This document shows, piece by piece, positions 1-43,374 of a stretch of DNA of 64,000 bases. The notes beneath the pieces were generated by a model that was not told where the DNA came from, did not search any database, and saw only the letters and a list, made by a program, of their open reading frames with translations. This stretch comes from a virus. Its lineage: Duplodnaviria; Caudoviricetes. The stretch is taken from positions 20,218 through 84,217 of the IMG/VR virus record IMGVR_UViG_3300017755_000003, one strand, 5' to 3'. The translations under genes and the position numbers were made by a program. Position 1 is the stretch's first letter. Every line of letters begins with the position of its first letter.

Positions 1-3000
1 TTAGTATTAAGTTCAGCACAGAGTTTAACTAACGATGTTGCTTTATCTTTCAACACATCATACAGAACAGGTGATGTTGTTAGAGTTGGTGGTTACACAT
101 ATCTTGCAATAGCAGATACAACAGGTAACAGACCACCAAACGCAAGTTACTGGGAAAAACTTAACGAAGGTATTAACTGGAGAGACAGTTGGACTAACGC
201 AACTTACTATGACGTAGGTGATGCTGTTAGAGGTATTAACAACGTTAACTCTTATATTTGTGTAACTGCACATACATCAGATCAAACTTCTGCACAGAAC
301 AGACCAGATCAAGATGTTGACGGTAGTGAATGGAAATTAATTTCAGGTGGTGCTGAGTCAGGCAACTTAACAACTGCTGGTGACTTATTGTACTACGGTG
401 GATCAGGACCAGCTAGATTACCAGTAGGTATTGCAGGACAGGTATTAAAAGTAAATGACGCCGGGAATGCTCCGGAATGGTCATATTTTGGACAAGTAGA
501 TCAAGTTTATTATGTAAGTCCAGCAGGTAAAGATGAAGCGGCACCAGGATATGGTGTTACTATTGACAAACCTTGGAAAACATTAAGACATAGTTTACGT
601 GAAATTAAACGTGGACCAAGAAATCCAATTCTAGCAGATATTTTAACAAGAAACAAACACTTTATCCAAGTTGAAGCAGGTAAAGAATATCCAGCTTACC
701 AAATTGCAAATGCAGGTGGTAGTGGTATTTGGAACGGCTTTACTTTTGACAATGCAAAATGTCAAAGAGATATGGGATTAATCACTGACGCAATCATACA
801 TGATTTAAGACATGGTGGTAATGAGCGTTCAAGAGAGATGGCACAGGCATACTTTAGCACAGGTGGTGCTTCATATGTTGCAGGACAAGAAGCAAATACA
901 GTAGAAGTTATTAATTACGCAAATACAATGATGCAGAGAATTGCACAGAACTTAACTGTTACAACAAATTACCAAGCATTAAACGGTATTGCCGTAAACG
1001 CAAGAGTATTACAATATACTTCAGCTCTATCACCAGAGACTGGAAATACAACAATAATTGCGGCCTTACTTGCTACTATTACAGAAGTTATTACAGCAGG
1101 AAACTTAACAGGATTAAATCCTAAAGTAAAACCAAACACAACATTATTTGTTAAAACAGGAAAATTTACAGAAGTACTTCCGTTGATTGTACCGGCAGAT
1201 ACAGCAGTTGTTGGTGACGAATTACGTTCAACAGAGATTGGTGTATACCCAACAGGTATAACAGGAACAAATGATGCTACACTTTCAATGGCGGCTTTAA
1301 CTAGAATCAAAGCTGTTATGAGTGATTTAATTTTAGGTAACGCAATTACAAAAACACCAGCAGGTGCAATGGTTAAAGTTGATACTTTTAGTGCCGCTGA
1401 CGCAAGTAGAACACAAGGTAGCTACACAGGTGTTGCAGGAGCAAGTGCAGGATCAGGAACAGTTGGTACGTTTGACGTAACTGTTGATGCAAATGGTGCC
1501 GTAACAGCAGTAACAGTTGTTACTGGTGGATCAGGACACGTACTTAACGATACAATTACAATTAACGACTCAGTACTAGGTGGCGGAGGCGGAGCAAACT
1601 TTACTTGTGACGTTTCGGAGATTGCCGCAGGTAATACACAAACACAAAATGATGCTTTACCAGATGGTGATGCAACAGCAGTAACTACTATGACTGGTTT
1701 AATTGATGATATCACTAACAAAATTAACTTTGGTGTAAACGGTGTAGGTTCAGACATTGTTGTAACAGGACAAACTACAACGAATGCTAGAGCAGGCGAT
1801 GTTTATGCTAGAGGTACTTTGTATGCTAACTTAGACTTTATCATTGAAGAAGGTCAAGAATATATTAAAGCAAACAATACAAAAATGTACATGGAGAAAG
1901 AAGCAACATATGGTTCTACTCACGGTGCAAAATGTAAAGACGATTTAAAACGTTACATAGAAGCTATATTAGATGATGTAAGAGATTACGGAAACTACAA
2001 TTCAGTATTAGCGGCAAGATATCTAGTAAATGCGATCCAAGGATCTAATTTAGAAGATATGTTCTACATGGAAAACGGTACTGGTTTAAGAAACTGTACT
2101 GTTAAAGGATTATCAGGAACATTAGGTAGTGCAAACGCATATGGATCTAAACGTCCAACAGCAGGTGCTTTTGTTTCACTTAACCCAAGTTGGGGACCAG
2201 CAGATACAAGAGCTTGGATATCAACACGTTCACCATACGTACAAAACGTAACAACTTTTGGTACAAAATGTGTTGGAATGAAAGTTGATGGAGATATACA
2301 CGCAGGTGGTAACGATTCGATCGTTGCTAACGACTTTACACAGATCTTAGATCAAGGTATTGGTGCTTGGGTAACTAACTTAGGTAGAGCAGAGCTTGTT
2401 TCCGTGTTCTCATACTACGGACACATTGGATACCTAGCAGAAAACGGCGGAAAAATTAGAGGAACCAACGGTAACAGTTCATATGGTGACTTTGGTTGTG
2501 TTGCAGAAGGTGTTGATTTAACAGAATCACCAATTGAAGCATTTGTTGATAACAGATCATTTGATGCACTTGTAGGTGCAACTATAACTGATAACAATAA
2601 TATCATTGCAATAGAATATCAAAATGCAGGAAGAGATTACACACCATCCACAACAACAATTAGTTTCAGTGGTGACGGTTATGGTATAACAGGATTAACT
2701 CCTGTTGTAGTAACAGGTGGTTTAATGGAAGTTAGAATGACAGGTGACGCTACAACATTTGGTGGCGCTGATTACAAAACTGCAACTAACACTCCACAGG
2801 CAGGTACCGCAACAGAAATTACTTTATCCAACACTGACGTGGCGTTAAGTGCGGCGTATGTTGGAATGGCAGTATTCATTACAGGTGGTAAAGGTGCTGG
2901 ACAGTATGGTTATGTTAACACATACAACGCAGGTACTAAAGTTGCTACAATTAAAAAATATTCAGACAACAGTGATGGTTGGGAACAAATTGTAAGTGGT

Positions 3001-4872
3001 AGAGCTATTGAAGCCGCGTTAGACAACACAACAGTTTATAGTGTTGAGCCAAGAGTTGTTGTACAGGCTCCAGGAAATGATGGATCAACAGCAACATCAA
3101 CTGCATTATGTAGAGCCAAAGTTGCAGATGGAAAAATTAGTGAAGTAAGAATTATCCACCCAGGAAGTTCTTATACAACTGCACCAACAGTAACATTTAC
3201 AGATCCTAACAATACAGCAGATGCTCCATTAGAAACATTTGTTGGTGATGGTGTATTAGCACAACCGGCATTTACTTCAAGAGGTACAGGTTGGACAACT
3301 TTAAGTGCAACTATTGAAGATGTAGGTCAAGAAAAAGATATCACAGGTGTTACCTTTACTGCTAATCCTTATGCAGAAATATTATTAACTGCAAACAAAG
3401 AATATATTGCAGATGAAACAGTGGCTTGGATTAACAATAAGATTGCTACAGAACCAAACTCAACTACTTGGGGTGGATTTATTTACGATTCAGTTAAGTG
3501 TGAAAGAGATACTAAACTAATCATTGACGCTATGTTACATGATATTAAGTTTGGTGGAACTAGAGAAACACTTAAGGCGGCTAAGGCTTACTGGATTGGT
3601 ACACAATCACAAGTAACTGGACAACAAACACAAACAGTATTATCATTGTTACAAGCAAAAGTAATTATTAATGATTACGTAATGGATAATGCGGCTTACA
3701 CTTCTTTACAGTCAGTAACTTCACAAACTACAAACAGTAACAATGGTGAAGCGGCGGCACAAACTAAAGTTGCAGAATTGTTTGCACTTATAACTGAAGT
3801 AATTAATAACGGTTTAGGTGCGGCAGATAGTTTCCCAGCAGGACCTGGTGTGGTTAACTTAACAGTTGCAACACATAACTTGTTAGACAGAACAAAAATT
3901 TCAATTAAAGAAGTTGGTGGTACAACACAGATTAATGCAAACAACTATTATGTAAAAGTTATTGATGCAAATACTTTACAACTTTATATTGATAAAGATT
4001 TATTATTCCCAGCAGTACTTACAACTGGAACAGCTTATAGTTCAGGTGGTAAGATTACATTTGGTGCTGGTTACAGAGATGCAAAACAATCTGGAAAATA
4101 TGTACAGGTTGAAGGTATGTTAGCCATACCACAAGCGGGTGCTAACGTAGTACTTGCTGATCAGCCAAACATATTCTTTAAACTTGTTAGTGTTACGAAC
4201 TTGACAGGGTCAGGACCATACGCGGCACTATTACAAATTTCACCAGATCAAGAAATTGACAATGCACCAGCACATGGTGTAAAAGTTGAGATGAGAATTA
4301 GATATTCACAGGTACGTTTGACAGGACATGACTTCCTAGATATTGGTACAGGTGGATTTACTACAACAAATTATCCTGGAACACCAACTATACCATCAGA
4401 TCCATTAGATGAAGCAGTTACTGGTGGAGGCGGAAGAGTATTCTTTACGTCAACTGACCAAGATGGTAACTTTAGAGTTGGTGGATTGTTCAACGTTGAA
4501 CAGGCAACTGGTATTGCTACCCTAAATGCTGATGCATTTAGTATTTCAGGATTACAAGAACTACAGCTTGGTAGTGTTGCATTAGGTGGAACAGGTGCTA
4601 CAATTAACGAGTTTAGTACAGATGGAACATTTACAGCAAATAGTGATAGCATTGTGCCAACACAGAAGGCAATTAAGACATATATTACCTCCCAAATTGG
4701 TGGCGGTGCTTCAGAATTGAACGTAAATACAGTTACAGCTGGTGTAGTACATATTAGCGGAAACACGATTACAACAACGACGGCGGTTCCGATAAATATA
4801 ACTGCAACAATGAACTTTACTGGTGGTATTAGTGGATCACCGGTAGCGATGCAACAATTTATATTGAGTTAA
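1..4872 (+). CDS. Giant tail/virion structural protein, 5' end outside the window. Contains CBM5/12-like repeats, a beta-helix-like core and three phycobiliprotein-like helical domains
   Basis: Frame 1 is open from base 1 (LVLSSAQ...YRTGDVVRVGGYTY...WTNATYYDVGDAV) into the listed 388..4872 ORF. YYVSPAGKD...KPWKTL...VKTGKFTE..P..VP....VVGDELRST resembles a beta-helix start. Thr/Gly/Ala-rich, located in a structural cluster. Confidence 0.8.
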   Translation, partial: LVLSSAQSLTNDVALSFNTSYRTGDVVRVGGYTYLAIADTTGNRPPNASYWEKLNEGINWRDSWTNATYYDVGDAVRGINNVNSYICVTAHTSDQTSAQNRPDQDVDGSEWKLISGGAESGNLTTAGDLLYYGGSGPARLPVGIAGQVLKVNDAGNAPEWSYFGQVDQVYYVSPAGKDEAAPGYGVTIDKPWKTLRHSLREIKRGPRNPILADILTRNKHFIQVEAGKEYPAYQIANAGGSGIWNGFTFDNAKCQRDMGLITDAIIHDLRHGGNERSREMAQAYFSTGGASYVAGQEANTVEVINYANTMMQRIAQNLTVTTNYQALNGIAVNARVLQYTSALSPETGNTTIIAALLATITEVITAGNLTGLNPKVKPNTTLFVKTGKFTEVLPLIVPADTAVVGDELRSTEIGVYPTGITGTNDATLSMAALTRIKAVMSDLILGNAITKTPAGAMVKVDTFSAADASRTQGSYTGVAGASAGSGTVGTFDVTVDANGAVTAVTVVTGGSGHVLNDTITINDSVLGGGGGANFTCDVSEIAAGNTQTQNDALPDGDATAVTTMTGLIDDITNKINFGVNGVGSDIVVTGQTTTNARAGDVYARGTLYANLDFIIEEGQEYIKANNTKMYMEKEATYGSTHGAKCKDDLKRYIEAILDDVRDYGNYNSVLAARYLVNAIQGSNLEDMFYMENGTGLRNCTVKGLSGTLGSANAYGSKRPTAGAFVSLNPSWGPADTRAWISTRSPYVQNVTTFGTKCVGMKVDGDIHAGGNDSIVANDFTQILDQGIGAWVTNLGRAELVSVFSYYGHIGYLAENGGKIRGTNGNSSYGDFGCVAEGVDLTESPIEAFVDNRSFDALVGATITDNNNIIAIEYQNAGRDYTPSTTTISFSGDGYGITGLTPVVVTGGLMEVRMTGDATTFGGADYKTATNTPQAGTATEITLSNTDVALSAAYVGMAVFITGGKGAGQYGYVNTYNAGTKVATIKKYSDNSDGWEQIVSGRAIEAALDNTTVYSVEPRVVVQAPGNDGSTATSTALCRAKVADGKISEVRIIHPGSSYTTAPTVTFTDPNNTADAPLETFVGDGVLAQPAFTSRGTGWTTLSATIEDVGQEKDITGVTFTANPYAEILLTANKEYIADETVAWINNKIATEPNSTTWGGFIYDSVKCERDTKLIIDAMLHDIKFGGTRETLKAAKAYWIGTQSQVTGQQTQTVLSLLQAKVIINDYVMDNAAYTSLQSVTSQTTNSNNGEAAAQTKVAELFALITEVINNGLGAADSFPAGPGVVNLTVATHNLLDRTKISIKEVGGTTQINANNYYVKVIDANTLQLYIDKDLLFPAVLTTGTAYSSGGKITFGAGYRDAKQSGKYVQVEGMLAIPQAGANVVLADQPNIFFKLVSVTNLTGSGPYAALLQISPDQEIDNAPAHGVKVEMRIRYSQVRLTGHDFLDIGTGGFTTTNYPGTPTIPSDPLDEAVTGGGGRVFFTSTDQDGNFRVGGLFNVEQATGIATLNADAFSISGLQELQLGSVALGGTGATINEFSTDGTFTANSDSIVPTQKAIKTYITSQIGGGASELNVNTVTAGVVHISGNTITTTTAVPINITATMNFTGGISGSPVAMQQFILS

Positions 4873-11989: not shown

Positions 11990-13792
11990 ATGGATAAGAA
12001 ACCAGTTTGGATCGCCGGTATTGCTAGAGGACACAACGCAGGTGTTTGCTTATTAAAAGATGGCAAGATCGTATTTGCAATAGAAGAAGAAAGACTAACA
12101 CGTCAGAAATATGATGGTGGTCCTTATGCTTCTATGATGAAAATTTTAGAATACACAGACAAACTAGATTTCTTATGTGTTGCACACACACAAAATTTAC
12201 AAAGAACAGCAGGTAGAGTAGACTTTAGTGGAGACGATGTTTACACAGGACTTGCACGTAAGATGGGATTAATAAGCAGAAAGCCTTATAACCCAGAAGA
12301 AAATCACCCACAAGTTATTGACATGAGTCATATACATCATAAGCTACACGCCGCTACAGCTTTTTATAGATCAGGATTTGATCAAGCAGTAGCAGTTATT
12401 GTAGATGGTGCAGGAACATTTATTGATTTACAAACAAATCAAGAACCTATGACTGTATGGGAAACAGAAACAATATACGATTGTACATATCCAGATAATT
12501 TTAAAACTATGTACAAGCATCTAGGTACTAACGGTCCTATTACATCACAATATCTAAAAAATATGTCAAGTGAATTATATGACGAACCTAAGGAATGGAC
12601 ACATGATGCATTTCTTACAGAGAACGCAGGTATTGTAAAAACATACGAAGCAGTAACTGAATACTGTGGCTTTAGTTTTATTGAAGCAGGTAAAACAATG
12701 GGATTATTTCCATATGGTAAGCCTAGTGATATAAAATTATGGAGAGAAGACAGTATGTGGCCGTTGTCTGATAGACAAATGATTGTGCCTACATATCCAA
12801 ATGGTGCTCACGTAAACTATAACTTGTTTGAATATCTTGCAACGCACGATAATGAAGATGTAAGCAAATTAGATAATAGAAGAGACATGGCTTATGCTGT
12901 ACAAACACAATCACAGGATCAAGTTGTAAAACTAATTAGACGTGCAGTTGAAATATCAGGTAAAAATAAAGTTGTTATTAGTGGAGGTTATGGACTTAAC
13001 TGTGTAGCAAACTATGAATATTTAGATCAACTAAAAGACGATAACATTCAAATCTATGTTGAACCAGTAAGTAACGATGCAGGAACGGCCATGGGTGCGG
13101 CAATGTTAATGCACAGAAAACTTACAAAGGATAACACAGTACAAGAACAGCAAGATACATTATACGAAGGTCCTGCTTATAGTTACTCAGATGAAGAAAT
13201 TAATAATGCTGTAGAAAAGTATGGTGCAACAGTTGAAGAAGCAGATGATAATAAAGTTGTTGACATCTTAGCTGATAGAAAGATTTGTACTATCTTCCAA
13301 GGACGTAGTGAAAATGGTCCTCGTGCATTAGGTAACAGAACTATTATGTATGATCCAAGTGACCCCGATGGTAAGGATCATGTTAATCTTATTAAACGTA
13401 GAGAATATTTTAGACCATTTGCAGGTAGCATACTAGAAGAAGATGTGCATGAATGGTTTGATTTACGTGGAATGGAAAGTTCACCAACAATGATGTATGC
13501 TGTAAACTGTCAACCAGGTATTGCAGAAAGAATTCCAAGCATCATACACGTTGACGGAACTTGCAGAATACAAACTGTAAGTGAAAAACAAAATCCTCAT
13601 TACTATAAGTTAATTAAGGCGTGGAAAGAAAAGACAGGACTGTCAATTATTTTCAATACAAGTTTTAATTTAGGTGGAGAGCCATTAGTTGAAACGTTAG
13701 ATGATGCTGTACGCACATTGAAACACAGCGACATTGAGTACTTGTACCTACCTGAATATAACAAACTTATAACGCTGAAAAATGACGGATAA
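11990..13792 (+). CDS. O-carbamoyltransferase (NodU/CmcH/TobZ family)
   Basis: EEERL.R.K, HHKLHA, DGAG, GG..LNC.AN, NDAG.AMGAA, GPRALGNR, KRRE.FRPFA, HVDGT.R.QT, NTSFN motifs. Confidence 0.92.
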   Translation: MDKKPVWIAGIARGHNAGVCLLKDGKIVFAIEEERLTRQKYDGGPYASMMKILEYTDKLDFLCVAHTQNLQRTAGRVDFSGDDVYTGLARKMGLISRKPYNPEENHPQVIDMSHIHHKLHAATAFYRSGFDQAVAVIVDGAGTFIDLQTNQEPMTVWETETIYDCTYPDNFKTMYKHLGTNGPITSQYLKNMSSELYDEPKEWTHDAFLTENAGIVKTYEAVTEYCGFSFIEAGKTMGLFPYGKPSDIKLWREDSMWPLSDRQMIVPTYPNGAHVNYNLFEYLATHDNEDVSKLDNRRDMAYAVQTQSQDQVVKLIRRAVEISGKNKVVISGGYGLNCVANYEYLDQLKDDNIQIYVEPVSNDAGTAMGAAMLMHRKLTKDNTVQEQQDTLYEGPAYSYSDEEINNAVEKYGATVEEADDNKVVDILADRKICTIFQGRSENGPRALGNRTIMYDPSDPDGKDHVNLIKRREYFRPFAGSILEEDVHEWFDLRGMESSPTMMYAVNCQPGIAERIPSIIHVDGTCRIQTVSEKQNPHYYKLIKAWKEKTGLSIIFNTSFNLGGEPLVETLDDAVRTLKHSDIEYLYLPEYNKLITLKNDG

Positions 13793-17273: not shown

Positions 17274-20200
17274 ATGGCTAAACAAAAAGTAGAATCGTAT
17301 ATATTCCAACCAGGAATTCCGATAACAGACAATCGTTATCCTGGAGCCTACGAACTGATCAAAAATAATGTAGAATTTATTTGCGATGAAGTTGTAGCAT
17401 GGATTGCCGCACAGGTAACGGCCAATGCTAGTGACCCAACTAGCTTTTGGTACAATTATACGTACAACTCACCAAAGTGTGAGAGAGATACCAGATATAA
17501 TCTACAAGGTACTGACGGGAATGGCGGTGTCATCTACGATTTAAGATACGGGGGAAATCAACAAGCAAGATTTTTAGCAAGTAAGTATTGGATTAACAGT
17601 ACTCCACAGATTGATGGTGATAGACAACCAGAGATAGCGGCTAAAAACTTTGCAAGAGATTTAATTAATAATTATATCTTAACTCAAGCAACTTTTACAT
17701 CTGCACAAAGTCCAGTTGTTACAACACAATATAAAAATAACGCAACTAACTATGAAACAGGTGCTGATGCAAGAATAACTGAACTAATGTTTGTTATCAC
17801 AGACGTTATTCAAAACGGACTTGACAATGTTCCAGCATTACAAAGAACACAGATTTCTAGTGTTAAGATGCAGACTCGTGTTCCAACAAACGACTTGTTG
17901 TTAATTACAGATACAACTAACAACGAAGTATTGTTTAACTTTAGTGATCCAGACTTAGGTGCAAGTGTTACGTTCCAAACAGATGACACTAGTTTGTTAA
18001 CAAAAGGTGTTGAAGAAGACTTTCCAAAGTTCTTAGAAAGAACAGGAACAGTTACAACAGTTTACCTAACTAAAAGCACAGACAATCCTAGTTACTCTGC
18101 TAAAGCAGTTGCAGTACTAGAAGCAAACTTAGAATTTTTAAAGAAAGAAACTGTGGCTTGGATCGCAGATCAAGTTGCAAATGCAACAACAGGATCAACT
18201 TGGGAAAACTATACATACAACACTACCAAGTGTGAAAGAGATATGGGATTAAACGTAATTGGTATTACAGAAGATATCAAATACGGTGGTAATGCAAACA
18301 CACATTACAACGCAAGTAAATATTGGATTCAAACTACTCCACAGATTGACGGAGATAGACAACCTGAGATACTTGCAAAACAATTTTGTAGAGATTTAAT
18401 TAATAATTATGTATTAAAAAATATTGCATATACTTCACAGCAAACAGGTGCAGGTGCAGTTTCACAAAACATAATTTTAAGTTTACCTGAACCAGGTGTA
18501 AACACAAGAGTAACTAACTTATTCTTTATTATTACAGACGTTATTCAAAACGGTACAGACAACTTACCTATTAAAGAAACTATTCCGTTATATTACGAAA
18601 CAGATGACTTACAGATCTTTATTGATCAAGGTGAGATGAGAACCAAACCATTCGACTTTGGTGTTGATGCTATTGAACGTATGAGAGTTTCAAACTCCAT
18701 ATCCATGCTTGATGCTGACTTTGAATACGGGCTACAGCCTACGAAGTGGCAGGCCATTGGTATGCAAAGAGGTTATCCAAGTATTTACGAATTACCAGGT
18801 ACTGATAAAGTTGTTTCAAGTGTTAAAACAGATGCTTCAGAAGGTACAGGTGGAGTTGGTCAAAGTTTAATTACTGTAACTACAGTTGGTGCTCACGGTA
18901 TTGAAGCTGGTACACCTATTACAATTAAAGCCTTAGAAAATAGTATTCAAGGGGCAAGTAGAGCAGAAGGATCGTTTGTTGTATCAACTGTTCCTACTGC
19001 AAGTACATTTACATATTTTGCTAAATCAAAAGTTGGTACAGCAAATAATCAGATACTTTCAACTTATTATACACAGTTAAGACAGGGTGGATTTTATACA
19101 GGGGCGGCGATTGGTACTCCAACATTTTCAATTCTATCACAAGGTACAGCAGGTGTATTTACTAACCCATTAGGTGCAACAGTTGGTGGAGATAAAGTTA
19201 CATGGATAGGTAACACACCAGAGATTGGTGCTCCGATGCAAAACGTTAACGGTCAGATTACAACAGTAAACACATATTCGGCCGCTGACGCAAGTAGAAC
19301 AGCAGGAACTTACACAGCAATAACAGGTAACTCAAGCAGTATTGCTACAGAATTAATTGTTGGTACATTTGATATTACTGTTGACGGAACAGGTGCCGCG
19401 ATAGCAAGTAACTTTAAAGGTGGTAGAAATAACGCAGTTGGCGATACTATCACTGTTGGGGATTCTTTCTTAGGTGGCGGCGGTGGAGCAGATTTAACGT
19501 TCCTAATTGCAAGTATTACAGACGGAACAGGTATTGACAGTGGTGCACAGGTTACTGTTGTTACAGGTACAGGTGGAGAAATTGCTACACTATCAACAGC
19601 AGGTGACTATGCCGGCGGAGTTAACTCAATTGAAGTTAGCGACGTTTCAGGAATTTTAGCAGGACAGGCCATTGACAGAGGAGATGGAACTGCTATCCAT
19701 GTTAGTTCTGTTGTTGGAAATACAGTTAACCTAGATGGAAACACAACTTCAGCTATCGTTGGTAACAACGTTCAGTACAATGCAGTTGCAGGAACAAATT
19801 ATAACAGCACAGGTTTTAGTGCAACATTTGATATTGACAGAGCAGGTGGAAACTATACAGTTGTACTAAATGGTACAGGTGGTGATCAATACGAAGTAGA
19901 CGATGTTATTGTTGTACTTGGTAACCAATTAGGTGGTCAAACACCTACTAACGATTGTAGAATTACAGTAGACTCAGTTGATTCAAGCGGATCAGTTACA
20001 TCATTTACAGCAGTAGGTTCAGCTTTTGATGGTAACGGAAGTTATACCAACCAAGTTGGTCAAAACATGAACGGTAATGGTTTAGGTGCAATATTTGATT
20101 TAGCATATACAAACAATGCTTTCACAGTAAGTTTAGCACAACCAACGTATGCCAATAATGCATCAGGTGTAACACAGGGTGGAATAGGTAACGGCTCAGC

Positions 20201-23200
20201 TTGGGATGTCACATTAACAAATAACAACTACACCGTGACAGAAAACGCGGCGGCGACTGAAACTGGATTTGCCGTAGGTGACGCATTAAAAATTAATGGT
20301 ACACAATTTGGTGGTGATATATCAAACGATTTAACAATTTCCGTAACAGGCGTTGACGGTAGTGGTGGTATTACATCATTTACATCAAGTGGTTTAGGAC
20401 CAGATGCACAGAATAACTTTACTGAGCCAGCTTACACATACAGTGGTATTGGTAGTGGTGCTTCGTTTGGTGTTGGTTACAATGGAACAACTTATACTGC
20501 TAACGTTGTAAGTCCTGGATCAGGATATAGTGCAAGTGAAACTTTAACAATTGATGGTGCAAACATTGGTGGTACTAGTTCAACAAACGATGCTGTAATA
20601 CAAATAGATAGTGTTGACGGTAGTGGTGTTATTACTGCAATTAGCATTACAGGTACAGCAAGTAACAGCAGAGCATTTACAAATATAACTTCAGCTACAA
20701 ATATAATTGGAGCGGCGGCATCATTCAACGTTACTGTAAACTACAATAACAGTTATACAGTTACGCAAGGTAATGAAGTAGGAACAAACTATGCTGTAGG
20801 AAATCAAATATTATTTGATGGTACAACATTTGGTGGTCTAACTTCTACAAACGATTTATTATTAACAATCACAGGCGTTAATGGCGCAGGTGGTATTACA
20901 GGATTTAACAGTTCTGGTACGGCTCCAGATGCAACAACAGGATACGCGGCTGGTGATAGATTAAGAATTGAAGGAACAAATATAGGTGGTTCAAGTCCAG
21001 TTAACGATGCTATTGTAAAAGTTGACGCTGTAAGCGGAACAGGAAGAATTAATACAATTAGTGTAACTGGTACAGCACCAGATGCCACTGAAAGTTATAA
21101 CAATCCAACTTACACTACAAACACAGTTGGTGGTGCAAGTGCAGAATTTAACGTAACAAGATTAGATACGGCCTATAGTGCAACTGCTCCAGTTGGTGGT
21201 ACAGGTTACCAGGTTGGTGAAGAATTTGTTATTGATGGTGCACAATTAGGTGGTGTAAGCAGTACTAACGATTGTACAATCCTAGTTGCAACAGTTGACG
21301 GTAGTACTGGTGAAATATTAACAATAACAGTAGCAGGTACAGCCTTAGACACAAAAACAATTACAGATTTAAGTCAGTTTGATGGAGAAGCAACAAACTT
21401 ACAAGGTAGTACTGCATCATTTGATATTACAATTACAGGCGGAGTTTATAGTTATGCTGTAAACACTCCAGGTACAGGTTACTATGCAGATCAAAACATT
21501 AAGATCCAAGGTAACCAAGTAGGTGGTGTAAGTCCAACTAACGATATCACAATCAATATCACAAGTGTAGGAACAGGTGGTGACATTACAGGTATTAGTG
21601 GTTCAGGTACAGGACCTTCAGGTACAGGAAGTTACACACAGATAGGTGGACAAAACTTACAAAACAACGGATCAAATGCAACGTTCAACGTTACAAGAAA
21701 TGCAGGTGCATATTCAACAGCAACAGTTTCCAATGATGGTATTAACTATCAAGTAGGAAACAAGATTAAATTATCAGGTACAGACTTAGGTGGACAAACT
21801 CCAACTAACGATGCAGTTGTTACTATTACAGAAGTTGCAACAGACGGTGGTATAGTTTCAGTAACAAGTGCAGGTACGGCCATTAATGGTACAGTTGTTA
21901 AAACATACAGTACAGTAACTATGTCAGAGGTTATGACAGCGGGAATTCCAGCAAACACTACAATAAGTTTTGCGGCATTGGCAACTGTTGAAGTTACATT
22001 TACAACTGCACACGGATTAGTTCCAGGAGATTCATTCCTGGTAACAGTAAGTTCCGACGATGGTGCAAACAATCACACGTTACTAGAAGGACCATTCTTT
22101 GCACAGCAAGTTCCAACTCTAACAACATTGAGATATCAGTGTAGAGCGGCGGGAGCCATTGGTGCTGTTGGTGACATTACTGCTATTTTATATCCAAGAC
22201 CAGATTCATTCTTTGTACACAGACCATATGATGGTGGTGTTATGTTAGGAACAGGTGGACCACAACACGGTGCACAGGCAATTAGACAGAGTAAAAAATA
22301 TATTAGATACCAGTCAGGTAAAGGTATCATGTATACAACGGGTGCCTTGTTTGCACCAAGTTATGATTTATTAGAAGTTACAGCAGATGCAACTGCAATA
22401 GGTTCATTTATTAATGTAACTACAGATGATGTTGACCACGGACTACAGGTTGGTGGACAAATTAAATTGATTGGTATTGAAACACCAGGATATAACGGAC
22501 CATACACAATCGCAAGTATAACAAGTGAACGTACATTTAGAGTTATTGCAACTACAGACTTAGGTAGTGTAACTCCTGTGTTAAGTCCAAAGGCTCAAGT
22601 TTCATTATTATACTGGCATGGTGCAACTGTACGTTCAGGTGCATTTGATGACCAGAATGGTATTTTCCAGGAATACGATGGTACTAACTTTAATGCTGTA
22701 CAAAGAACTTCAACATTACAGCTATCAGGTACAATCAGTATTGGTGTAGATTCAAACGCAATCACAGGTATAGGAACAAGATTTAGAGATCAAGTAAAAG
22801 CAGGTGACAGAATTGTTATTAAAGGTATGACACACGTTGTATCACAGGTAGCAAGTCAAACAGCAATGAACGTAACTCCAGACTTTAGAGGTGTAACACC
22901 AGCAAGTGGTGCCAAGTTATGTTTAGTATTTGATAAGAAAACAAAACAAGCAGACTTTAACAAAGATAAATTAGACGGTACAGGTTCGTCAGGTTATATC
23001 ATGGACATCTCTAAGATGCAGATGATTGGGATTCAGTACAGTTGGTACGGTGCTGGATTTATTGACTGGATGCTACGTGGTGATGATGGTAACTTTATTT
23101 TCTATCACAGAATGAGAAACTCAAACATTAACACAGAAGCATATATGCGTACAGGTAATATGCCGGTTAGATATGAAGTATCCAATGAAGGTCCTAATGA

Positions 23201-24638
23201 TAAGTTAGCGGCTAATATGGACGATACACAATCTACTATACCATTGGAAGATGCTTCATTCTTCCCAAGCACAGGTACAGTTATAATTGATAATGAGATG
23301 ATTCAGTACACAGGTGTTAACGGAGATACGTTAACAGGTTGTACTAGAAGTGCTCCATTAACAAACTATGCCGCGGGTGCAACAAGAACATATACGGCAG
23401 GTGTTGCCGCAACGCACACAACACGTACTGGGGTTATATTGATTAGTAATACTATTACACCAATCATATCACACTGGGGATCAGCTTTCCAAACAGATGG
23501 TGGATTTGATAGTGATAGAGGTTATATCTTTTCATATACTTCCACAGGTAACGTTATTTCATCAACAAGAAATACTGTGTTCATGTTAAGATTAGCACCT
23601 AGTGTATCAAACGCAATCGTTGGTGACTTAGGTGAAAGAGAACTATTAAACAGAGCCCAGTTGCTACTTGAAGGTATTGAAATTACATCAGATGGATCAT
23701 CAGGTGGTACACCAATTACAGGTGGTATTGTTGTTGAAGGAATTTTAAATCCGCAAAACTATCCAACTGATCCAGGTGACGTTGGTTGGGCACCATTAAC
23801 GGGTTCAGCGGCTGGTGGACAGCCAAGTTTTGCACAGATTGCCCCGGGTGGATCTGTTGTATGGTCAACAGGTGCAACTCAGATTATTAAAAATGCAACC
23901 ACTGTTGCAGAGATGACATTAGATGTTATAAAGACTGGTAATACAAATAACTGGATTTATCACAGAATTACAAATGCTTCGTATACTACAGCGATTGCAA
24001 ATGGACTAACTACAGGTTTAACAGTTACAGCAACTGGTAACGGATCACCATCCGACTTCCCAAGTGGTACAACACTAACAGAAATTTTAGATTGGTACAA
24101 TCCTCCATACTTAAGATTTAATAATAGAAACAGTGGCGGTCAGGTTAGTAACAATGAAACTATTACTATGTCTATTAACCCAACAGGTGCATTAAGCGGT
24201 ACTAACTTCCTTTACTTTACAAAAGCAAGTTGGGAATCAACAGGTGCTATTGCAGGTACTGAGGTAAGTGACAGTAACTTCCCAGGTGGAACATACGTTT
24301 CTGGTGTACAGGCAGGAGCATTTGGTGGTGTTGATTATTATAGAATTACATTTACACAGAGTTCATTGGGTAACATTACAGCAGGTACAAGTATAGGATT
24401 CTTATTTGGACAACCTCCATATGCACAGCCAGGTGAAACAGTATTTTCATTTATTGCTACGCCAGGTTCAAGTTCAGCACTAGACTTAGGTACATTGAAA
24501 GAGTTGACTAATACTACACTAGGTGGTAGAGGTACTTTTCCAAATGGTCCAGACGTTTTAGCAATTAACGTTTATAAGGCGGCTGGTGCAGATACCAATG
24601 CGAATATTATTATACGTTGGGGTGAAGCTCAGGCGTAA
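17274..24638 (+). CDS. Giant (2454 aa) tail/virion structural protein with two phycobiliprotein-like domains and about 8-9 Gly/Thr-rich beta repeats
   Basis: Two KCERD...YGGN domains near the N-terminus; repeats of GY..G..I.I.G...GG..PTND..I.V..VD..G.I. Confidence 0.8.
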   Translation: MAKQKVESYIFQPGIPITDNRYPGAYELIKNNVEFICDEVVAWIAAQVTANASDPTSFWYNYTYNSPKCERDTRYNLQGTDGNGGVIYDLRYGGNQQARFLASKYWINSTPQIDGDRQPEIAAKNFARDLINNYILTQATFTSAQSPVVTTQYKNNATNYETGADARITELMFVITDVIQNGLDNVPALQRTQISSVKMQTRVPTNDLLLITDTTNNEVLFNFSDPDLGASVTFQTDDTSLLTKGVEEDFPKFLERTGTVTTVYLTKSTDNPSYSAKAVAVLEANLEFLKKETVAWIADQVANATTGSTWENYTYNTTKCERDMGLNVIGITEDIKYGGNANTHYNASKYWIQTTPQIDGDRQPEILAKQFCRDLINNYVLKNIAYTSQQTGAGAVSQNIILSLPEPGVNTRVTNLFFIITDVIQNGTDNLPIKETIPLYYETDDLQIFIDQGEMRTKPFDFGVDAIERMRVSNSISMLDADFEYGLQPTKWQAIGMQRGYPSIYELPGTDKVVSSVKTDASEGTGGVGQSLITVTTVGAHGIEAGTPITIKALENSIQGASRAEGSFVVSTVPTASTFTYFAKSKVGTANNQILSTYYTQLRQGGFYTGAAIGTPTFSILSQGTAGVFTNPLGATVGGDKVTWIGNTPEIGAPMQNVNGQITTVNTYSAADASRTAGTYTAITGNSSSIATELIVGTFDITVDGTGAAIASNFKGGRNNAVGDTITVGDSFLGGGGGADLTFLIASITDGTGIDSGAQVTVVTGTGGEIATLSTAGDYAGGVNSIEVSDVSGILAGQAIDRGDGTAIHVSSVVGNTVNLDGNTTSAIVGNNVQYNAVAGTNYNSTGFSATFDIDRAGGNYTVVLNGTGGDQYEVDDVIVVLGNQLGGQTPTNDCRITVDSVDSSGSVTSFTAVGSAFDGNGSYTNQVGQNMNGNGLGAIFDLAYTNNAFTVSLAQPTYANNASGVTQGGIGNGSAWDVTLTNNNYTVTENAAATETGFAVGDALKINGTQFGGDISNDLTISVTGVDGSGGITSFTSSGLGPDAQNNFTEPAYTYSGIGSGASFGVGYNGTTYTANVVSPGSGYSASETLTIDGANIGGTSSTNDAVIQIDSVDGSGVITAISITGTASNSRAFTNITSATNIIGAAASFNVTVNYNNSYTVTQGNEVGTNYAVGNQILFDGTTFGGLTSTNDLLLTITGVNGAGGITGFNSSGTAPDATTGYAAGDRLRIEGTNIGGSSPVNDAIVKVDAVSGTGRINTISVTGTAPDATESYNNPTYTTNTVGGASAEFNVTRLDTAYSATAPVGGTGYQVGEEFVIDGAQLGGVSSTNDCTILVATVDGSTGEILTITVAGTALDTKTITDLSQFDGEATNLQGSTASFDITITGGVYSYAVNTPGTGYYADQNIKIQGNQVGGVSPTNDITINITSVGTGGDITGISGSGTGPSGTGSYTQIGGQNLQNNGSNATFNVTRNAGAYSTATVSNDGINYQVGNKIKLSGTDLGGQTPTNDAVVTITEVATDGGIVSVTSAGTAINGTVVKTYSTVTMSEVMTAGIPANTTISFAALATVEVTFTTAHGLVPGDSFLVTVSSDDGANNHTLLEGPFFAQQVPTLTTLRYQCRAAGAIGAVGDITAILYPRPDSFFVHRPYDGGVMLGTGGPQHGAQAIRQSKKYIRYQSGKGIMYTTGALFAPSYDLLEVTADATAIGSFINVTTDDVDHGLQVGGQIKLIGIETPGYNGPYTIASITSERTFRVIATTDLGSVTPVLSPKAQVSLLYWHGATVRSGAFDDQNGIFQEYDGTNFNAVQRTSTLQLSGTISIGVDSNAITGIGTRFRDQVKAGDRIVIKGMTHVVSQVASQTAMNVTPDFRGVTPASGAKLCLVFDKKTKQADFNKDKLDGTGSSGYIMDISKMQMIGIQYSWYGAGFIDWMLRGDDGNFIFYHRMRNSNINTEAYMRTGNMPVRYEVSNEGPNDKLAANMDDTQSTIPLEDASFFPSTGTVIIDNEMIQYTGVNGDTLTGCTRSAPLTNYAAGATRTYTAGVAATHTTRTGVILISNTITPIISHWGSAFQTDGGFDSDRGYIFSYTSTGNVISSTRNTVFMLRLAPSVSNAIVGDLGERELLNRAQLLLEGIEITSDGSSGGTPITGGIVVEGILNPQNYPTDPGDVGWAPLTGSAAGGQPSFAQIAPGGSVVWSTGATQIIKNATTVAEMTLDVIKTGNTNNWIYHRITNASYTTAIANGLTTGLTVTATGNGSPSDFPSGTTLTEILDWYNPPYLRFNNRNSGGQVSNNETITMSINPTGALSGTNFLYFTKASWESTGAIAGTEVSDSNFPGGTYVSGVQAGAFGGVDYYRITFTQSSLGNITAGTSIGFLFGQPPYAQPGETVFSFIATPGSSSALDLGTLKELTNTTLGGRGTFPNGPDVLAINVYKAAGADTNANIIIRWGEAQA

Positions 24639-25214
24639 TTATTTTACGTTGAAGGCAATAACAGTTCTAATACAATCTTTTCTACTAGGTAAAACAGTAT
24701 GTTTCAAGTAACTAGGAAACATTAGTATTCTTCCTTTAATAGGTTGGTATACATATTCTTGCCAAGAGTAAGGTGAATTTTCTCTCATTGTGTGTCCGTA
24801 TTCAACAAAAGGATTTGGATTTCTAAACATTATTCCGCCTGCACTTTCATTTGCACGTACATAATACACACCACTAATCTGTCCTACGTTGTGATGATGT
24901 TCATTATGAATGTCACCTTCTTTATAATCTTGTGTCCACCAATTATATGAATAGCCTTCTTGTATTCTATTCATTGCATTTTTATTTTGATAATCTCTAA
25001 CACACATATCTATTTCTGATTTTAATTCAGGTGTGTCGTATTTTAGATCTATAACTTTATCTTTTTCAAAATAGTCAGTGGCATGAGGTGCGTTCTCATC
25101 TGGTCTTTGTAATTTATCTACACGTTCTTCTACAAGTTTTTCTACATGGTCAGCTATAGAAGGAGCAACATCATGTACAAGTATACCGGTTGGAAATATA
25201 TTTTCGTATTTCAT
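24639..25214 (-). CDS. Putative 2OG-Fe(II) oxygenase (TIGR02466-like)
   Basis: H.EHHH...SGVYYV, G.I.F.NP, G.ILMFPSYL.H.V, R..IAFN. Confidence 0.8.
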   Translation of the reverse strand: MKYENIFPTGILVHDVAPSIADHVEKLVEERVDKLQRPDENAPHATDYFEKDKVIDLKYDTPELKSEIDMCVRDYQNKNAMNRIQEGYSYNWWTQDYKEGDIHNEHHHNVGQISGVYYVRANESAGGIMFRNPNPFVEYGHTMRENSPYSWQEYVYQPIKGRILMFPSYLKHTVLPSRKDCIRTVIAFNVK

Positions 25215-26279: not shown

Positions 26280-27105
26280 CTATATACTCCTGTATAGTCT
26301 TAAACTTATAGTCACCTATACTATTAATTAGTTTTGAATTGTCTGCACACGTATAGAACTGATACTGTCCAATTAAGTTTGCAGGCATAGGAACATATTC
26401 AATTTCTGCTTTGTGTTTCTTTGCATACCCTTTAGCTATGTCACTAAAACTAGGTGCTGTTCCTGTTCCTAGATTCCAAATTCCTGTTTCATCTACATGG
26501 AAAAACTTTTCAATGATTTGACAAATATCTCCAACCCAAATAAAATCTCTATGTATTCTATCACTGCCTTCAAACAGTGAAATCTTTTTTAAATTTTTAG
26601 CTTGTAAGTCAAACTTACCAAAGACACTTTGTTGTTCACCCTTGTGTTGTTCGCCTTCTCCATACGCATTAAAGATTCTAAATCCTTGCACGTTAATCAT
26701 GTACTCGGGTATTTCCATTACAAGTTTATCAAATAGATACTTGCTCCAAGCATAAGCATTCATTGGATATATGTTGTCAGTCTCTTTTATTTTTTCGACT
26801 TGGTAATGGCTTTGTGTATCTCCATATACACTAGCACTTGAGGCATACATAAAAGTTGTGCCATTGTCATTACATAACTGTAAAAGTCTTTGACTAAATT
26901 CTAGGTTCTGTGTTAAAACTTTTTCTACATCTCTTTCTGTAGTTGAACTTATTGCTCCAAGATGTACAACTCTATCATAAGGTGCAGGATCAGGTACCTT
27001 GTTTGGTTCCCATTCAAAGCCTTCTACTTCATGACCCATGTGTTGTAAATATGAACATAGGTTCTTTCCAATAAATCCTTGGTGTCCTGTTACTAATACT
27101 TTCAT
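26263..27105 (-). CDS. hldD: ADP-L-glycero-D-manno-heptose 6-epimerase
   Basis: TG..GFIG.N, HLGAISSTTE.D, YASSASVYG, Y.WSK, R.FN.YG..E.HKG, RDFI.V.D, YQ.YTCAD; adjacent to hldE. Confidence 0.88.
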   Translation of the reverse strand: MKVLVTGHQGFIGKNLCSYLQHMGHEVEGFEWEPNKVPDPAPYDRVVHLGAISSTTERDVEKVLTQNLEFSQRLLQLCNDNGTTFMYASSASVYGDTQSHYQVEKIKETDNIYPMNAYAWSKYLFDKLVMEIPEYMINVQGFRIFNAYGEGEQHKGEQQSVFGKFDLQAKNLKKISLFEGSDRIHRDFIWVGDICQIIEKFFHVDETGIWNLGTGTAPSFSDIAKGYAKKHKAEIEYVPMPANLIGQYQFYTCADNSKLINSIGDYKFKTIQEYIDASKT

Positions 27106-28397
27106 CTGTGTCCCTTGAATGCTACTTGATTATGTCTTGGATCTTGTTGCTGTCTAATTTTTTCTATTGATTCTGTTGTGCTATAGCCTTCAATAATAGG
27201 AAAAATTTCTACTTTGGCAATGTCATTTCCTACCACTGTATCAGTTGTATAATCACCACCTTTTACTATTACGTCAGGTTGTATTTCCTTTATAACATTG
27301 TATGGTGTATCTTCTTCAAATATAACTACATCATCTACAAACCCTAATTCTAACAATGCTTCTTTGCGTTTCTCTTGACCGTTAATGGGTCTTAAATCGC
27401 CTTTTAAACGCTTAACAGAAGAATCACTATTAATGCCCACCACAAGGCGTTTTCCTAGCGTGTGTGCGTGTCTAAGTAGCTTTAAATGGCCAGTATGCAG
27501 TATATCAAACACCCCATTAGCCCATACGATATTGCGTTCCAAATCGTCTTGTTGTATTATAGCAACACCCCGTTTTTCAACGATCCTAGCCGCGGCATAA
27601 CAAGCCAATTTACAGGCATCAAATATGTCCATACCCTTATCAATACCATAGGCAATAACTGCCATTACAGTATCTCCTGCACCAGTTACATCTGCAACTT
27701 CTTTTACAGGTTCACTAAAATGTTTGTACTCGTCTAGTATGTTTAGTACGTGCATACCATTAGCACCATCAGTAACAACTAACCAAGTCCAGCTATGTCT
27801 TTGCATTTGTCTAAGAGCATCTGCTTGATTCCATTTACCAAACCATGCTTCGTATTCTGCCATGTTTGGTTTAACAAGATATGCTCCATGATAAAAGTTT
27901 GCATCTTGTTTTGGATCAACTAAAATCTTTGCTTCTTTGCTTAATAAGTTTGCTACTGTATCTCGTCTTACAGTACCCTTTGCATAATCACTTACGCAGA
28001 TAATATCATTTTTCTTAATGTATGTTTCTAGTCTATCGTTTGCTTGATCACCAGTGTACTGGACTTCTCTATCCCAACGTACAATATGCTGTCCACCTTT
28101 TGCAACTAGTCTTGTTTTTGTTGTTGTAACATCTTGGTCACCGGCCATTTGACATTCTAAGTTTTGTTTTAATAAAAGTTCTTGTAACTTATAACCTTCT
28201 TTGTCATGTCCTGTAACACTTATTAATGTTACGGTTGATCCTAAACTTTTTATATTGAGTGCTAAATTTCCTGCACCACCTATTGACCATTCTTGATGAT
28301 CTTCTAATAACACAGGTACAGGTGCTTCTGGTGACATTCTATTTGCTTCACCGACTATCCATCGATCTAACATTATGTCGCCGTAGACTTTTATCAT
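27102..28397 (-). CDS. hldE: Bifunctional heptose-7-phosphate kinase / heptose-1-phosphate adenylyltransferase
   Basis: GD.MLD, R.SPEAPVPV, GGAGN.A.N, SDYAKG, VDPK, DVTGAGDTV, then NG.FDILH.GH, GINSD.SV.RLKG..RP, KGGDY, STT. Confidence 0.92.
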   Translation of the reverse strand: MIKVYGDIMLDRWIVGEANRMSPEAPVPVLLEDHQEWSIGGAGNLALNIKSLGSTVTLISVTGHDKEGYKLQELLLKQNLECQMAGDQDVTTTKTRLVAKGGQHIVRWDREVQYTGDQANDRLETYIKKNDIICVSDYAKGTVRRDTVANLLSKEAKILVDPKQDANFYHGAYLVKPNMAEYEAWFGKWNQADALRQMQRHSWTWLVVTDGANGMHVLNILDEYKHFSEPVKEVADVTGAGDTVMAVIAYGIDKGMDIFDACKLACYAAARIVEKRGVAIIQQDDLERNIVWANGVFDILHTGHLKLLRHAHTLGKRLVVGINSDSSVKRLKGDLRPINGQEKRKEALLELGFVDDVVIFEEDTPYNVIKEIQPDVIVKGGDYTTDTVVGNDIAKVEIFPIIEGYSTTESIEKIRQQQDPRHNQVAFKGHR

Positions 28398-41781: not shown

Positions 41782-43374
41782 ATGGCAACTACAAAAAGTC
41801 TAGACGGTGTTCTAACCAAAAAAGCACACCAACGTGAAAAGTTTAATGAAGCAGGAATTGAGGAACTAAAGAAATGTATAGATCCTGATACAGGGTATCT
41901 ATATTTTTGTCAAAAGTTTTTTCATATACAACATCCTGTTGACGGAAAGGTTATGTTTGATCCTTTTCAGTATCAAGAACGTTTACTAGAAAGTTATCAC
42001 AATCACAGATTTAATATTAATATGTTGCCAAGACAAAGTGGCAAGACAACTACTGCCGCGGCATACTTGTTATGGTATGCTATGTTTCATCCAGATCAAA
42101 CAATACTAATTGCCGCACACAAATACACAGGTGCTCAAGAGATCATGCAACGTATTAGATACGGATATGAATTATGTCCTGATAGCATTAGGGCAGGTGT
42201 AACAAACTACAACAAAGGTTCAATGGAATTTGAGAATGGTAGTAGAATAGTTAGTGCTACTACAACAGGTAACACAGGAAGAGGTATGTCAATATCTTTA
42301 CTATACTGTGATGAGTTTGCATTTGTTAATCCAAGTATTGCAGATGAATTTTGGACTTCGATATCTCCAACACTAGCAACAGGTGGTCGTGCAATTATCA
42401 CAAGCACACCTAACTCAGATGAAGATACGTTTGCTATTATATGGAAAGAATCACAAAACAAGTTTGATGAAAGTGGCAACGAAAGTTTAATAGGTACTAA
42501 CGGCTTTCATGGCTTTACTGCTAAATGGGACGAACATCCTGATAGAGATGAAGACTGGGCTAAAGTAGAAGTAGGTAGAATTGGTGAAGAAAGATTTAGA
42601 CGCGAGTATGGTTGTGAATTCTTAGTTTATGACGAAACACTTATTAACAGTATTAAACTTTCTAGTTTAGAAGGTACCGAGCCTACAATGAATATGGGGC
42701 AAACACGTTGGTATGGTAAGCCAGAAGGTAATAGCACTTATGTTGTTGCACTAGATCCTGCTATGGGAACAGGTGGCGACTTTGCCGCTATTGAAGTATT
42801 TGAATTGCCAACATATAAACAAGTTGCTGAATGGCGACACAACACTACACCAATACCTGCACAGATAAGAATATTAAAAGACATTTGTAATTATATAAAA
42901 GAATGCTGTCAAAATGATGGACAAAACATCTATTGGTCAGTAGAAAACAACAGCATCGGAGAAGGTGCATTGATAGTTATTAGAGACATGGGCGAAGAGA
43001 ATATACCAGGTATGTGTGTATCAGAACCCATTAGAAAAGGTCATGTACGTAAGTTTAGAAAAGGATTTAACACTACACACAGCACAAAGATAAGTGCTTG
43101 TACTAGATTAAAAAACATGGTTGAAAACGACAAGCTAACAATAAACAGCAAAGTATTAATAAGTGAACTTAAGGCTTTTGTTGCTAGTGGTAGTAGTTTT
43201 AAAGCAAAACCAGGTGAAACAGACGATCTAGTGAGTGCTTGTTTACTGAGTATGCGTATCATGGCAGTATTAAAAGATTGGGATCCTAGAGTGTATGAAA
43301 CCTTCAATCAAGCGGATACAGGCGACGATGCAACACCGCCCATGCCTATATTTGTTTCAACAAACATAAGATAA
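41782..43374 (+). CDS. terL: Terminase large subunit (T4 gp17-like)
   Basis: PRQSGKTT Walker A, LLYCDEFAFV Walker B, ITSTPN, F.REY.CEF, LDPA.G.G.D, VENN..G, DDLV.A. Confidence 0.95.
   Translation: MATTKSLDGVLTKKAHQREKFNEAGIEELKKCIDPDTGYLYFCQKFFHIQHPVDGKVMFDPFQYQERLLESYHNHRFNINMLPRQSGKTTTAAAYLLWYAMFHPDQTILIAAHKYTGAQEIMQRIRYGYELCPDSIRAGVTNYNKGSMEFENGSRIVSATTTGNTGRGMSISLLYCDEFAFVNPSIADEFWTSISPTLATGGRAIITSTPNSDEDTFAIIWKESQNKFDESGNESLIGTNGFHGFTAKWDEHPDRDEDWAKVEVGRIGEERFRREYGCEFLVYDETLINSIKLSSLEGTEPTMNMGQTRWYGKPEGNSTYVVALDPAMGTGGDFAAIEVFELPTYKQVAEWRHNTTPIPAQIRILKDICNYIKECCQNDGQNIYWSVENNSIGEGALIVIRDMGEENIPGMCVSEPIRKGHVRKFRKGFNTTHSTKISACTRLKNMVENDKLTINSKVLISELKAFVASGSSFKAKPGETDDLVSACLLSMRIMAVLKDWDPRVYETFNQADTGDDATPPMPIFVSTNIR

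Follow-up and report, generated by a model that had tools for sequence, protein, structure and literature searches.

Duplicated phycobiliprotein-type globin domains with a conserved candidate bilin site in a predicted giant fiber-type protein of a marine phage

Why would a fiber-type protein of a virus begin with domains that resemble the light-harvesting pigment proteins of cyanobacteria? The question arises from a 64,000-nucleotide stretch of DNA (the window, as the whole analyzed stretch is called below) that covers positions 20,218 to 84,217 of the IMG/VR record IMGVR_UViG_3300017755_000003, a virus of the Caudoviricetes. In it, an open reading frame (ORF) encoding 2,454 amino acids (aa) opens with a duplicated domain of ca. 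165 aa per copy, which a first-pass annotation of the bare sequence had read as phycobiliprotein (PBP)-like. Cyanobacteria, red algae, and cryptophytes use PBPs as antenna proteins, and relatives outside the antennae (BBAGs and photoglobins) have been described only recently. Judging by sequence profiles and predicted structures, the two copies are duplicated PBP-type globin domains that have kept an intact and strongly conserved CXRD site within a virion protein of the fiber type.

A profile of 45 copies confirmed both domains at the N terminus and recognized three more in the neighboring giant protein (Table 1), one of them partial, and no further copy over the 84,217-base contig, in line with the five copies in two giant proteins counted by the first-pass annotation. 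The neighboring ORF measures 2,108 aa from stop to stop, and its last 1,623 aa lie in the window (positions 1 to 4872). Each copy has one Cys, and in the 2,454-aa protein this residue is encoded by TGT at the two places where the annotation had put it (17478-17480 for Cys69 and 18231-18233 for Cys320). Copies 1 and 2 are identical at 83 of 163 positions (51%; BLASTP, E = 6e-53), in an alignment that encloses the SKYWI..TPQIDGDRQPEI..RDLINNY and ITDVIQNG stretches on which the earlier claim of an internal duplication had leaned. The duplication is indeed still visible in the DNA, as a direct repeat of 106 nucleotides (nt) at 83% similarity (17577-17682 versus 18312-18417) and further direct repeats of 75 nt at 76% and 65 nt at 71%, all spaced 735 to 753 nt apart. 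Copy 1 carries the expected short insertion, which follows the CERD motif inside helix E, whereas this helix is uninterrupted in copy 2.

The domain belongs to a large family. Searching 1.84 billion proteins with a profile of the four clear copies of the window retrieved 1,264 representative proteins at E ≤ 1e-3 (451 of these at E ≤ 1e-30), and among the matches listed there were giants that reach 6,382 aa and contain as many as 35 matched stretches each. Conservation was assessed on 1,590 instances taken from the best 150 of the 1,264 proteins and from the two window proteins. Over the motif columns (ca. 1,550 instances), Cys was found in 97%, Arg in 96%, and Asp in 99%, figures that are biased upward because the searching profile itself contains the motif; the Cys and Asp on which the first-pass reading turned are thus not variable. 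Other columns were nearly invariant as well (Asn9, 98%; Asp58, ca. 100%; Tyr74, 98%), and the motif residues together with Asp58 and Tyr74 were all kept in 1,445 of the 1,543 instances in which the five columns were filled, with identities between copies of merely ca. 25 to 50%. No conserved His or second Cys was found among the columns of the domain.

Is the resemblance to PBPs more than a short motif? The AlphaFold2 (AF2) models of the two copies (pLDDT 95.5 and pTM 0.91 for copy 1; 93.7 and 0.88 for copy 2) both show a predicted PBP-type globin fold with helices A to H. The X-Y N-terminal hairpin of PBPs is absent, and the alignments start at about PBP residue 25 to 50. Among 48,161 PDB representatives searched with VIA, the best eight rows for copy 1 (Z 12.9 to 10.4) and the best seven for copy 2 (Z 13.3 to 11.2) were all PBPs or ApcE, with the caveat that helical models can reach a Z of ca. 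14 without kinship. The top row, far-red allophycocyanin 8or7_A, had a root mean square deviation of 2.2 over 117 residues with copy 1 (Z 12.9) and of 2.4 over 120 residues with copy 2 (Z 13.3), and phycoerythrin 5aqd_M scored Z 12.8 and 12.9, respectively. Below the PBPs came globin-coupled sensors, RsbR-type globins, and photocobilin globins, at Z 9 to 10.6. Foldseek gave the same picture, since 34 of the 35 rows listed for copy 1 and 33 of the 34 for copy 2 were titled phycobiliprotein or phycobilisome, with probabilities of ca. 1.00 and TM scores of 0.5 to 0.6 for the PBP rows. In BFVD there were 17 structural matches at E ≤ 0.001, and the named ones all came from Synechococcus phages or uncultured Caudovirales.

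At the level of sequence, the 45-copy profile yielded 15 rows at E ≤ 10 against PDB sequences, of which 13 were C-phycocyanin alpha chains (best E, 0.062), and the alignment placed K-C-x-R-D-x-G-Y on the Cys84 region and GGN on the GGT of phycocyanin alpha. For a comparison of profiles we assembled 46 PBP genes from metagenome contigs by means of a short degenerate motif, at <82% identity; the four verified in Pfam scored 170 to 199 bits against the PF00502 cutoff of 22.2. In hhalign, the phage and PBP profiles aligned with a probability of 82.2% (E = 1e-5) over 66 columns (domain positions 7 to 73, PBP positions 40 to 107), and the phage Cys, Arg, and Asp fell on the invariant PBP residues C81, R83, and D84. 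Single sequences were less informative: aa 21 to 449 of the protein retrieved only dynein light-chain rows at chance level from the PDB sequences (E = 0.44), PF00502 gave no match to copy 1 or, as a family search at E ≤ 10, to the contig itself, and the ESM Atlas features gave no usable match. In PBPs, the alpha-beta monomer is built by the X-Y hairpin together with a conserved Asp/Arg pair. The residues of this pair (invariant D12 and R90 of the PBP alignment) are not kept in the phage domains, where the column under R90 is Asp in 79% of cases, so that by the alignments the chromophore triad is retained while the alpha-beta interface is lost.

No single one of these similarity scores is strong alone. 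However, the profile against the PDB, the profile against a profile, and two structure aligners agree on the family and on the register of the motif, which argues that the domain very probably shares common descent with the PBP/BBAG lineage. By their predicted globin fold, their CXRD motif, and this kinship, the phage domains fall among the bilin-binding globins in the wide sense, and the PBP-like character assigned to them by the first-pass annotation is upheld by fold, profile matches (phycocyanin alpha, PF00502, and hhalign), and motif conservation.

We then asked which viruses carry the module. When three queries were run with tblastn against 50,697 phage records, 213, 195, and 123 records matched, all of them named Synechococcus, Prochlorococcus, or "Cyanophage" except for one to five "Marine virus" records per query. 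The carriers are annotated as gp7 baseplate wedge (P-HM1 and P-HM2), short tail fiber, tail fiber, tail protein, or virion structural protein. A restrictive pattern scan of 185,579 species genomes found the domain in only three marine contigs of metagenome-assembled genomes (MAGs). One of them, PBPT01000016.1 (335 kb, from a MAG labeled Neomarinimicrobiota), encodes a terminase large subunit (TerL) 73% identical to that of the window, and for this reason we read the MAG contigs as phage DNA binned into MAGs and not as cellular homologs. The genome with this 335-kb relative has 12 domain matches, some of them present again, as duplicates, on another contig of that MAG. Another domain-bearing contig, from a MAG labeled Methanobacteriota, likewise looks like phage DNA binned into a cellular MAG. 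The module is thus widespread in picocyanobacterial myoviruses and present in the jumbo lineage of the window.

That lineage is not the one expected from the fibers. The TerL of the window is 54% identical to that of the Pseudomonas jumbo phage PA5oct group and 50% identical to that of Sinorhizobium phage Phosso, but only 34 to 36% identical to those of 17 cyanomyoviruses, and we rejected the label of T4-like cyanomyovirus (Kyanoviridae) because TerL lies nearer to the PA5oct group. With the contig rated at 24% completeness, the full genome would measure roughly 350 kb. By contrast, the C-terminal 994 aa of the 2,454-aa protein are 46.4% identical to S-CAM3 over 100% of the query and 54.4% identical to S-CAM1 over 81% (tblastn), and 41 of the 44 records matched are named Synechococcus, Prochlorococcus, or Cyanophage. 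From this combination of a distant TerL and a close C terminus we infer that fiber modules have been exchanged between unrelated phages sharing a host. Given its cyanophage-type fiber proteins, the virus may represent a jumbo phage, not yet cultured, that infects picocyanobacteria. In the course of these comparisons, the TerL match of S-ShM2 (NC_015281.1, 108612-109703) was seen to cross two in-frame stops (one TGA and one TAA); the longest open frame is merely 364 to 386 aa, and the gene may be split or interrupted.

What would such domains do on a virion? The reading that we favor, with a probability of roughly 50%, is that they carry a covalently bound bilin, so that the phage particles may carry pigment; it draws on the sequence, the models, and analogy with known bilin sites. 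Domains of the bilin-binding globin lineage would have entered giant fiber and baseplate proteins of marine cyanophage-type viruses as repeatable modules, and during assembly in the infected cyanobacterium each intact domain would take up a bilin, of the phycoerythrobilin (PEB), phycocyanobilin (PCB), or phycourobilin (PUB) type. Ring A of the bilin would be tied to the Cys by a thioether bond, with the Arg and Asp donating hydrogen bonds to the remainder of the pigment; these are the roles that Rockwell et al. 2023 (PMC10151467) give to the three residues of the globin bilin-site motif. Attachment could be spontaneous or aided by a phage CpeT-like protein. For the former there is precedent: the same source describes BBAG globins with CXRD that self-assemble with several bilins without lyases, and, in Scheer and Zhao 2008 (PMC2327270), most apo-PBPs are said to bind bilins spontaneously in vitro and ApcE to attach its bilin autocatalytically. 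The outcome would be a covalently bound pigment on the host-recognition apparatus of the virion. Its role is the least certain step; our best guess is a light sensor controlling adsorption, and a purely stabilizing chromophore is the alternative.

Among known systems, the light-harvesting PBPs (PF00502: ApcA/B, CpcA/B, and CpeA/B) share the globin-type fold, are the best structural match for both copies, and have their Cys84 bilin site, followed by a Gly-Gly turn, in register with the phage C-x-R-D. The phage domain differs in lacking the X-Y hairpin and the interface residues and in having an additional invariant Asp and Tyr, and it stands in tandem within virion proteins of 2,000 to 7,000 aa, whereas PBPs are free subunits of 160 to 180 aa. 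Closer in architecture is the bilin domain of ApcE, which is likewise a PBP-type domain within a very large multidomain protein and whose structures match the phage copies (4xxi_A, Z 12.0 with both; also 7eyd_19, 7sc7_BD, and 9wg7_N2); however, ApcE has one such domain and belongs to the phycobilisome core, while the phage proteins have 2 to 35 and are virion parts. The BBAGs, as described in PMC10151467, are PBP paralogs outside the antenna, some with CXRD like the phage domain, but they are small cellular proteins encoded beside heme oxygenase and pre-PcyA genes. Photoglobins or photocobilins and the globins of globin-coupled sensors have the same general fold and put a globin to sensory use; they rank below the PBPs (photocobilins 8j2w_B and 8j2y_B, Z 9.0 to 9.7; globin-coupled sensors 4uiq_A and 4zva_A, Z 10.1 to 10.5), and their ligand residues differ from the phage CXRD, being CXQD in photoglobins (PMC10151467) and a proximal His in heme globins.

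The first-pass annotation had proposed to test whether the module co-occurs with bilin-synthesis genes of phages. We surveyed 18 isolate genomes, namely the 17 cyanomyoviruses of the classic comparative set and the podovirus P-SSP7. The domain was present in 14 of the 18 (14 of the 17 cyanomyoviruses) and not in P-SSM2, S-SM2, S-SSM7, or P-SSP7. The gene cpeT (PF06206), whose role in phages "remains unresolved" in the passage of Sullivan et al. 2010 that deals with it (PMC3037559), was detected in 12 isolates at E ≤ 1e-3; a relaxed threshold added P-SSM7 (28.6 bits) and S-ShM2 (23 bits; both summed scores, cutoff 21), in the syntenic place, and even so gave no candidate in the four domain-negative genomes. 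All 14 isolates with the domain have cpeT and none of the 4 that lack the domain does, an arrangement with a chance of 1 in 3,060 in a 2 by 2 table uncorrected for phylogeny. The TerL tree did not uphold the independence of this co-occurrence: the three domain-negative myoviruses fall in an unresolved basal polytomy, with 7 of the 15 inner branches open, so that one event of gain or loss might suffice to produce everything observed, and independence cannot be claimed. In S-PM2, cpeT lies ca. 1.5 kb upstream of S-PM2d218, a 3,779-aa protein that is, with S-PM2d088, one of the two giant domain carriers of this phage.

A good number of observations weigh against a bound bilin or against the kinship itself, in addition to the bias and the caveat already attached to the conservation figures and to Z. 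The Foldseek E values were weak (best 0.034 for copy 1 and 0.012 for copy 2, none ≤ 0.001), fold and motif are not fully independent because the motif may have influenced the AF2 prediction, and the hhalign match is limited to 66 columns in helices B to E. Scanned copy by copy, PF00502 matched 2 of the 45 members (best E, 0.0047) without reaching the curated threshold, the other 43 being below Pfam detection. In 80 IMG/VR loci found by two peptide patterns, only 138 of 174 instances kept all five residues, the Cys position held I, L, S, T, A, V, or M instead in ca. 32 of the 174, and the Cys is lost in copy 2 of some close orthologs of the 2,454-aa protein (in two loci, L002 and L007). In copy 1 the insertion inside helix E is near the presumed pocket. 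As for the genes, none of cpeT, psbA, and hli, the only ones searched for, was found in the genome of the 335-kb relative, and no cpeT, bilin reductase, or heme oxygenase in the window's own contig, which is a fragment. Among the isolates, P-SSM2 encodes a bilin reductase while lacking the domain, S-PM2 carries the domain yet lacks the reductase, and a co-occurrence of the two is rejected on four genomes. Moreover, T-type lyases serve Cys-153/155 (Cys-beta155) and not Cys-84, whereas it is the S-type lyases that serve Cys84, according to the passages on lyases in Scheer and Zhao 2008 (PMC2327270) and, for the T type, also PMC10452541.

Several of these points fit a different picture, in which a descendant of the PBP-type globins has become a rigid helical spacer or decoration in fiber and baseplate proteins, with Cys, Arg, and Asp kept for folding and packing in a buried polar network with Asp58 and Tyr74 and with no chromophore. 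We regard such an apo module as the main rival, with a real probability, though a lower one than that of a bound bilin. Arrays of up to 35 domains in proteins as long as those listed above are what other fiber repeats look like; Asp58, Tyr74, and Asn9 are invariant, phage specific, and without a PBP counterpart, as in a network of their own; some copies retain Arg and Asp without the Cys, copy 2 of the close orthologs being an example; and neither bilin nor lyase genes were found in the lineage of the window, within the limits just given for the contig and its relative. Packing alone, however, hardly explains a single unpaired Cys in 97% of ca. 1,550 diverged extracellular copies, nor why the residues kept should be exactly the three with which PBPs hold their bilin while those of the PBP interface are gone, nor why the module should, among isolates, be limited to phages of bilin-making hosts.

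Other readings leave the bilin out by giving the site another partner or the domain another origin. The pocket might bind something else (a host surface molecule, a metal, or a cofactor), or the Cys might lock the fiber by disulfides between chains. The annotation of carriers as tail fiber, short tail fiber, or baseplate wedge agrees with this, as do the one Cys per domain and the mutations that both S-PM2 giants acquire during coevolution with the host, reported in PMC9910659. We nevertheless consider it improbable: the domain offers no conserved His or second Cys suited to heme or metal, the triad that would contact the ligand is the bilin triad of PBPs, and a nearly invariant motif is unlike the receptor-binding parts of fibers, which are usually variable. 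Least likely of all, in our judgment, is a generic helical fold of the sensor-globin type, without common descent with PBPs and with a CxRD-like motif by chance. Sensor globins, RsbR, and photocobilin globins do match the models too, the sequence statistics outside hhalign are marginal (the E of 0.062, and that of 0.0047 in two of the 45 copies), and the ESM Atlas gave no feature match; yet three independent routes rank PBPs first with the motif in register, and among isolates the domain occurs only in phages of PBP-bearing hosts.

One phenotype of cyanophages could be related to such a module. Liu et al. 2019 (PMC6628666) report no dark adsorption for P-HM1 and P-HM2, reduced dark adsorption for P-SSM2, and dark adsorption for P-SSP7 and P-GSP1, and they state, citing Jia et al. 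2010, that the light requirement of S-PM2 is independent of host photosynthesis; Demory et al. 2020 (PMC7112961) agree on the behavior of P-HM2 and P-SSP7. We found five domain matches each in P-HM1 and P-HM2, nine in S-PM2, and none in P-SSM2 or P-SSP7, that is, the domain in three of three light-dependent phages and in neither of the two dark-adsorbing phages compared. With five nonindependent points, this match is a lead and not evidence of cause. A bilin that absorbs light might change the conformation of the giant fiber and baseplate proteins and so permit adsorption. That the domains are the light sensor behind light-dependent adsorption, with phage CpeT serving them, is on this correlative basis doubtful; if it were true, baseplate and fibers would be biliproteins and the virion's own photoreceptor, the long-unexplained light-dependent adsorption of cyanomyoviruses would have an explanation, and the widespread phage cpeT would gain a substrate in the phage's own structural proteins.

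Regardless of the role, a PBP-type module with an intact chromophore site, present up to 35 times in one virion protein, would be the first candidate for a pigment-bearing structural protein of a virus. A full-text literature search, which had most subscription journals outside its reach, found no publication describing PBP-type domains in phage fiber proteins. With this module, the light requirement of some cyanophages for adsorption becomes open to direct test, as does the purpose that phage cpeT, and perhaps the bilin-synthesis genes of phages, may serve. It also suggests self-contained, tandem, and possibly lyase-independent bilin-binding scaffolds that could be used as fluorescent tags.

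Table 1. Positions in the window of the domain copies, their motifs, and other features
Feature	Window position	Strand	Evidence
ORF, 2,454 aa, giant virion structural protein (fiber/baseplate type)	17274..24638	+	PHROG matches
PBP-type globin domain, copy 1, aa 24-192	17343..17849	+	45-copy profile, i-E 2.4e-64
PBP-type globin domain, copy 2, aa 277-437	18102..18584	+	45-copy profile, i-E 1.9e-64
C-E-R-D motif, copy 1: Cys69, Arg71, Asp72	17478..17489	+	Aligned to PBP CXRD bilin site
C-E-R-D motif, copy 2: Cys320, Arg322, Asp323	18231..18242	+	
Domain copy in neighboring giant protein, Cys codon 760-762	631..1134	+	i-E 2e-43
Partial divergent copy, profile positions 2-73, C-K-D-D, Cys codon 1933-1935	1804..2058	+	i-E 1.5e-7
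Domain copy in neighboring giant protein, Cys codon 3499-3501	3370..3840	+	i-E 4e-54
Eight Gly-rich repeats, ending GG..(S/T)(P/T)ND....(V/I)	19791..21863 (aa ~840-1530)	+	Regular-expression count
C-terminal 994 aa, common to Synechococcus phage virion structural proteins	21654..24635	+	tblastn
Terminase large subunit (TerL)	41782..43374		

The remainder of the 2,454-aa protein agrees with a structural assignment. It matched phrog_5838 ("virion structural protein") over aa 1460 to 2016 with an E of 3.3e-244 and phrog_4527 ("short tail fiber protein") over aa 265 to 390, and a Pfam scan of the whole protein gave no family at E ≤ 1. The Gly-rich repeats follow each other at 126, 86, 88, 51, 88, 91, and 89 aa, mostly ca. 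88 aa, and their region has no Pfam family. By eye, a further module of the form ..SAADASRT.G.YT.. appears to be common to both giants (window ca. 19230-19560 and ca. 1380-1640), and in the translations of both it is followed by a G-rich FD(I/V)TVD...LGGGGGA stretch.

Some neighboring genes are also worth recording. A 2OG-Fe(II) oxygenase gene (24639-25214, minus strand) adjoins the 2,454-aa gene downstream, in the opposite orientation. S-PM2 has such an oxygenase gene as well (155763-156344), immediately upstream of S-PM2d218, and cpeT comes slightly farther upstream. The oxygenase next to a domain-bearing gene in both places may be a coincidence or a conserved neighborhood. Among the structural genes of the window there are also a gene for a Nol-like carbamoyltransferase (11990-13792) and one for a protein with a heptose kinase/adenylyltransferase-like C terminus (27102-28397, minus strand), which are of the sugar-modifying auxiliary type, as in cyanophages.

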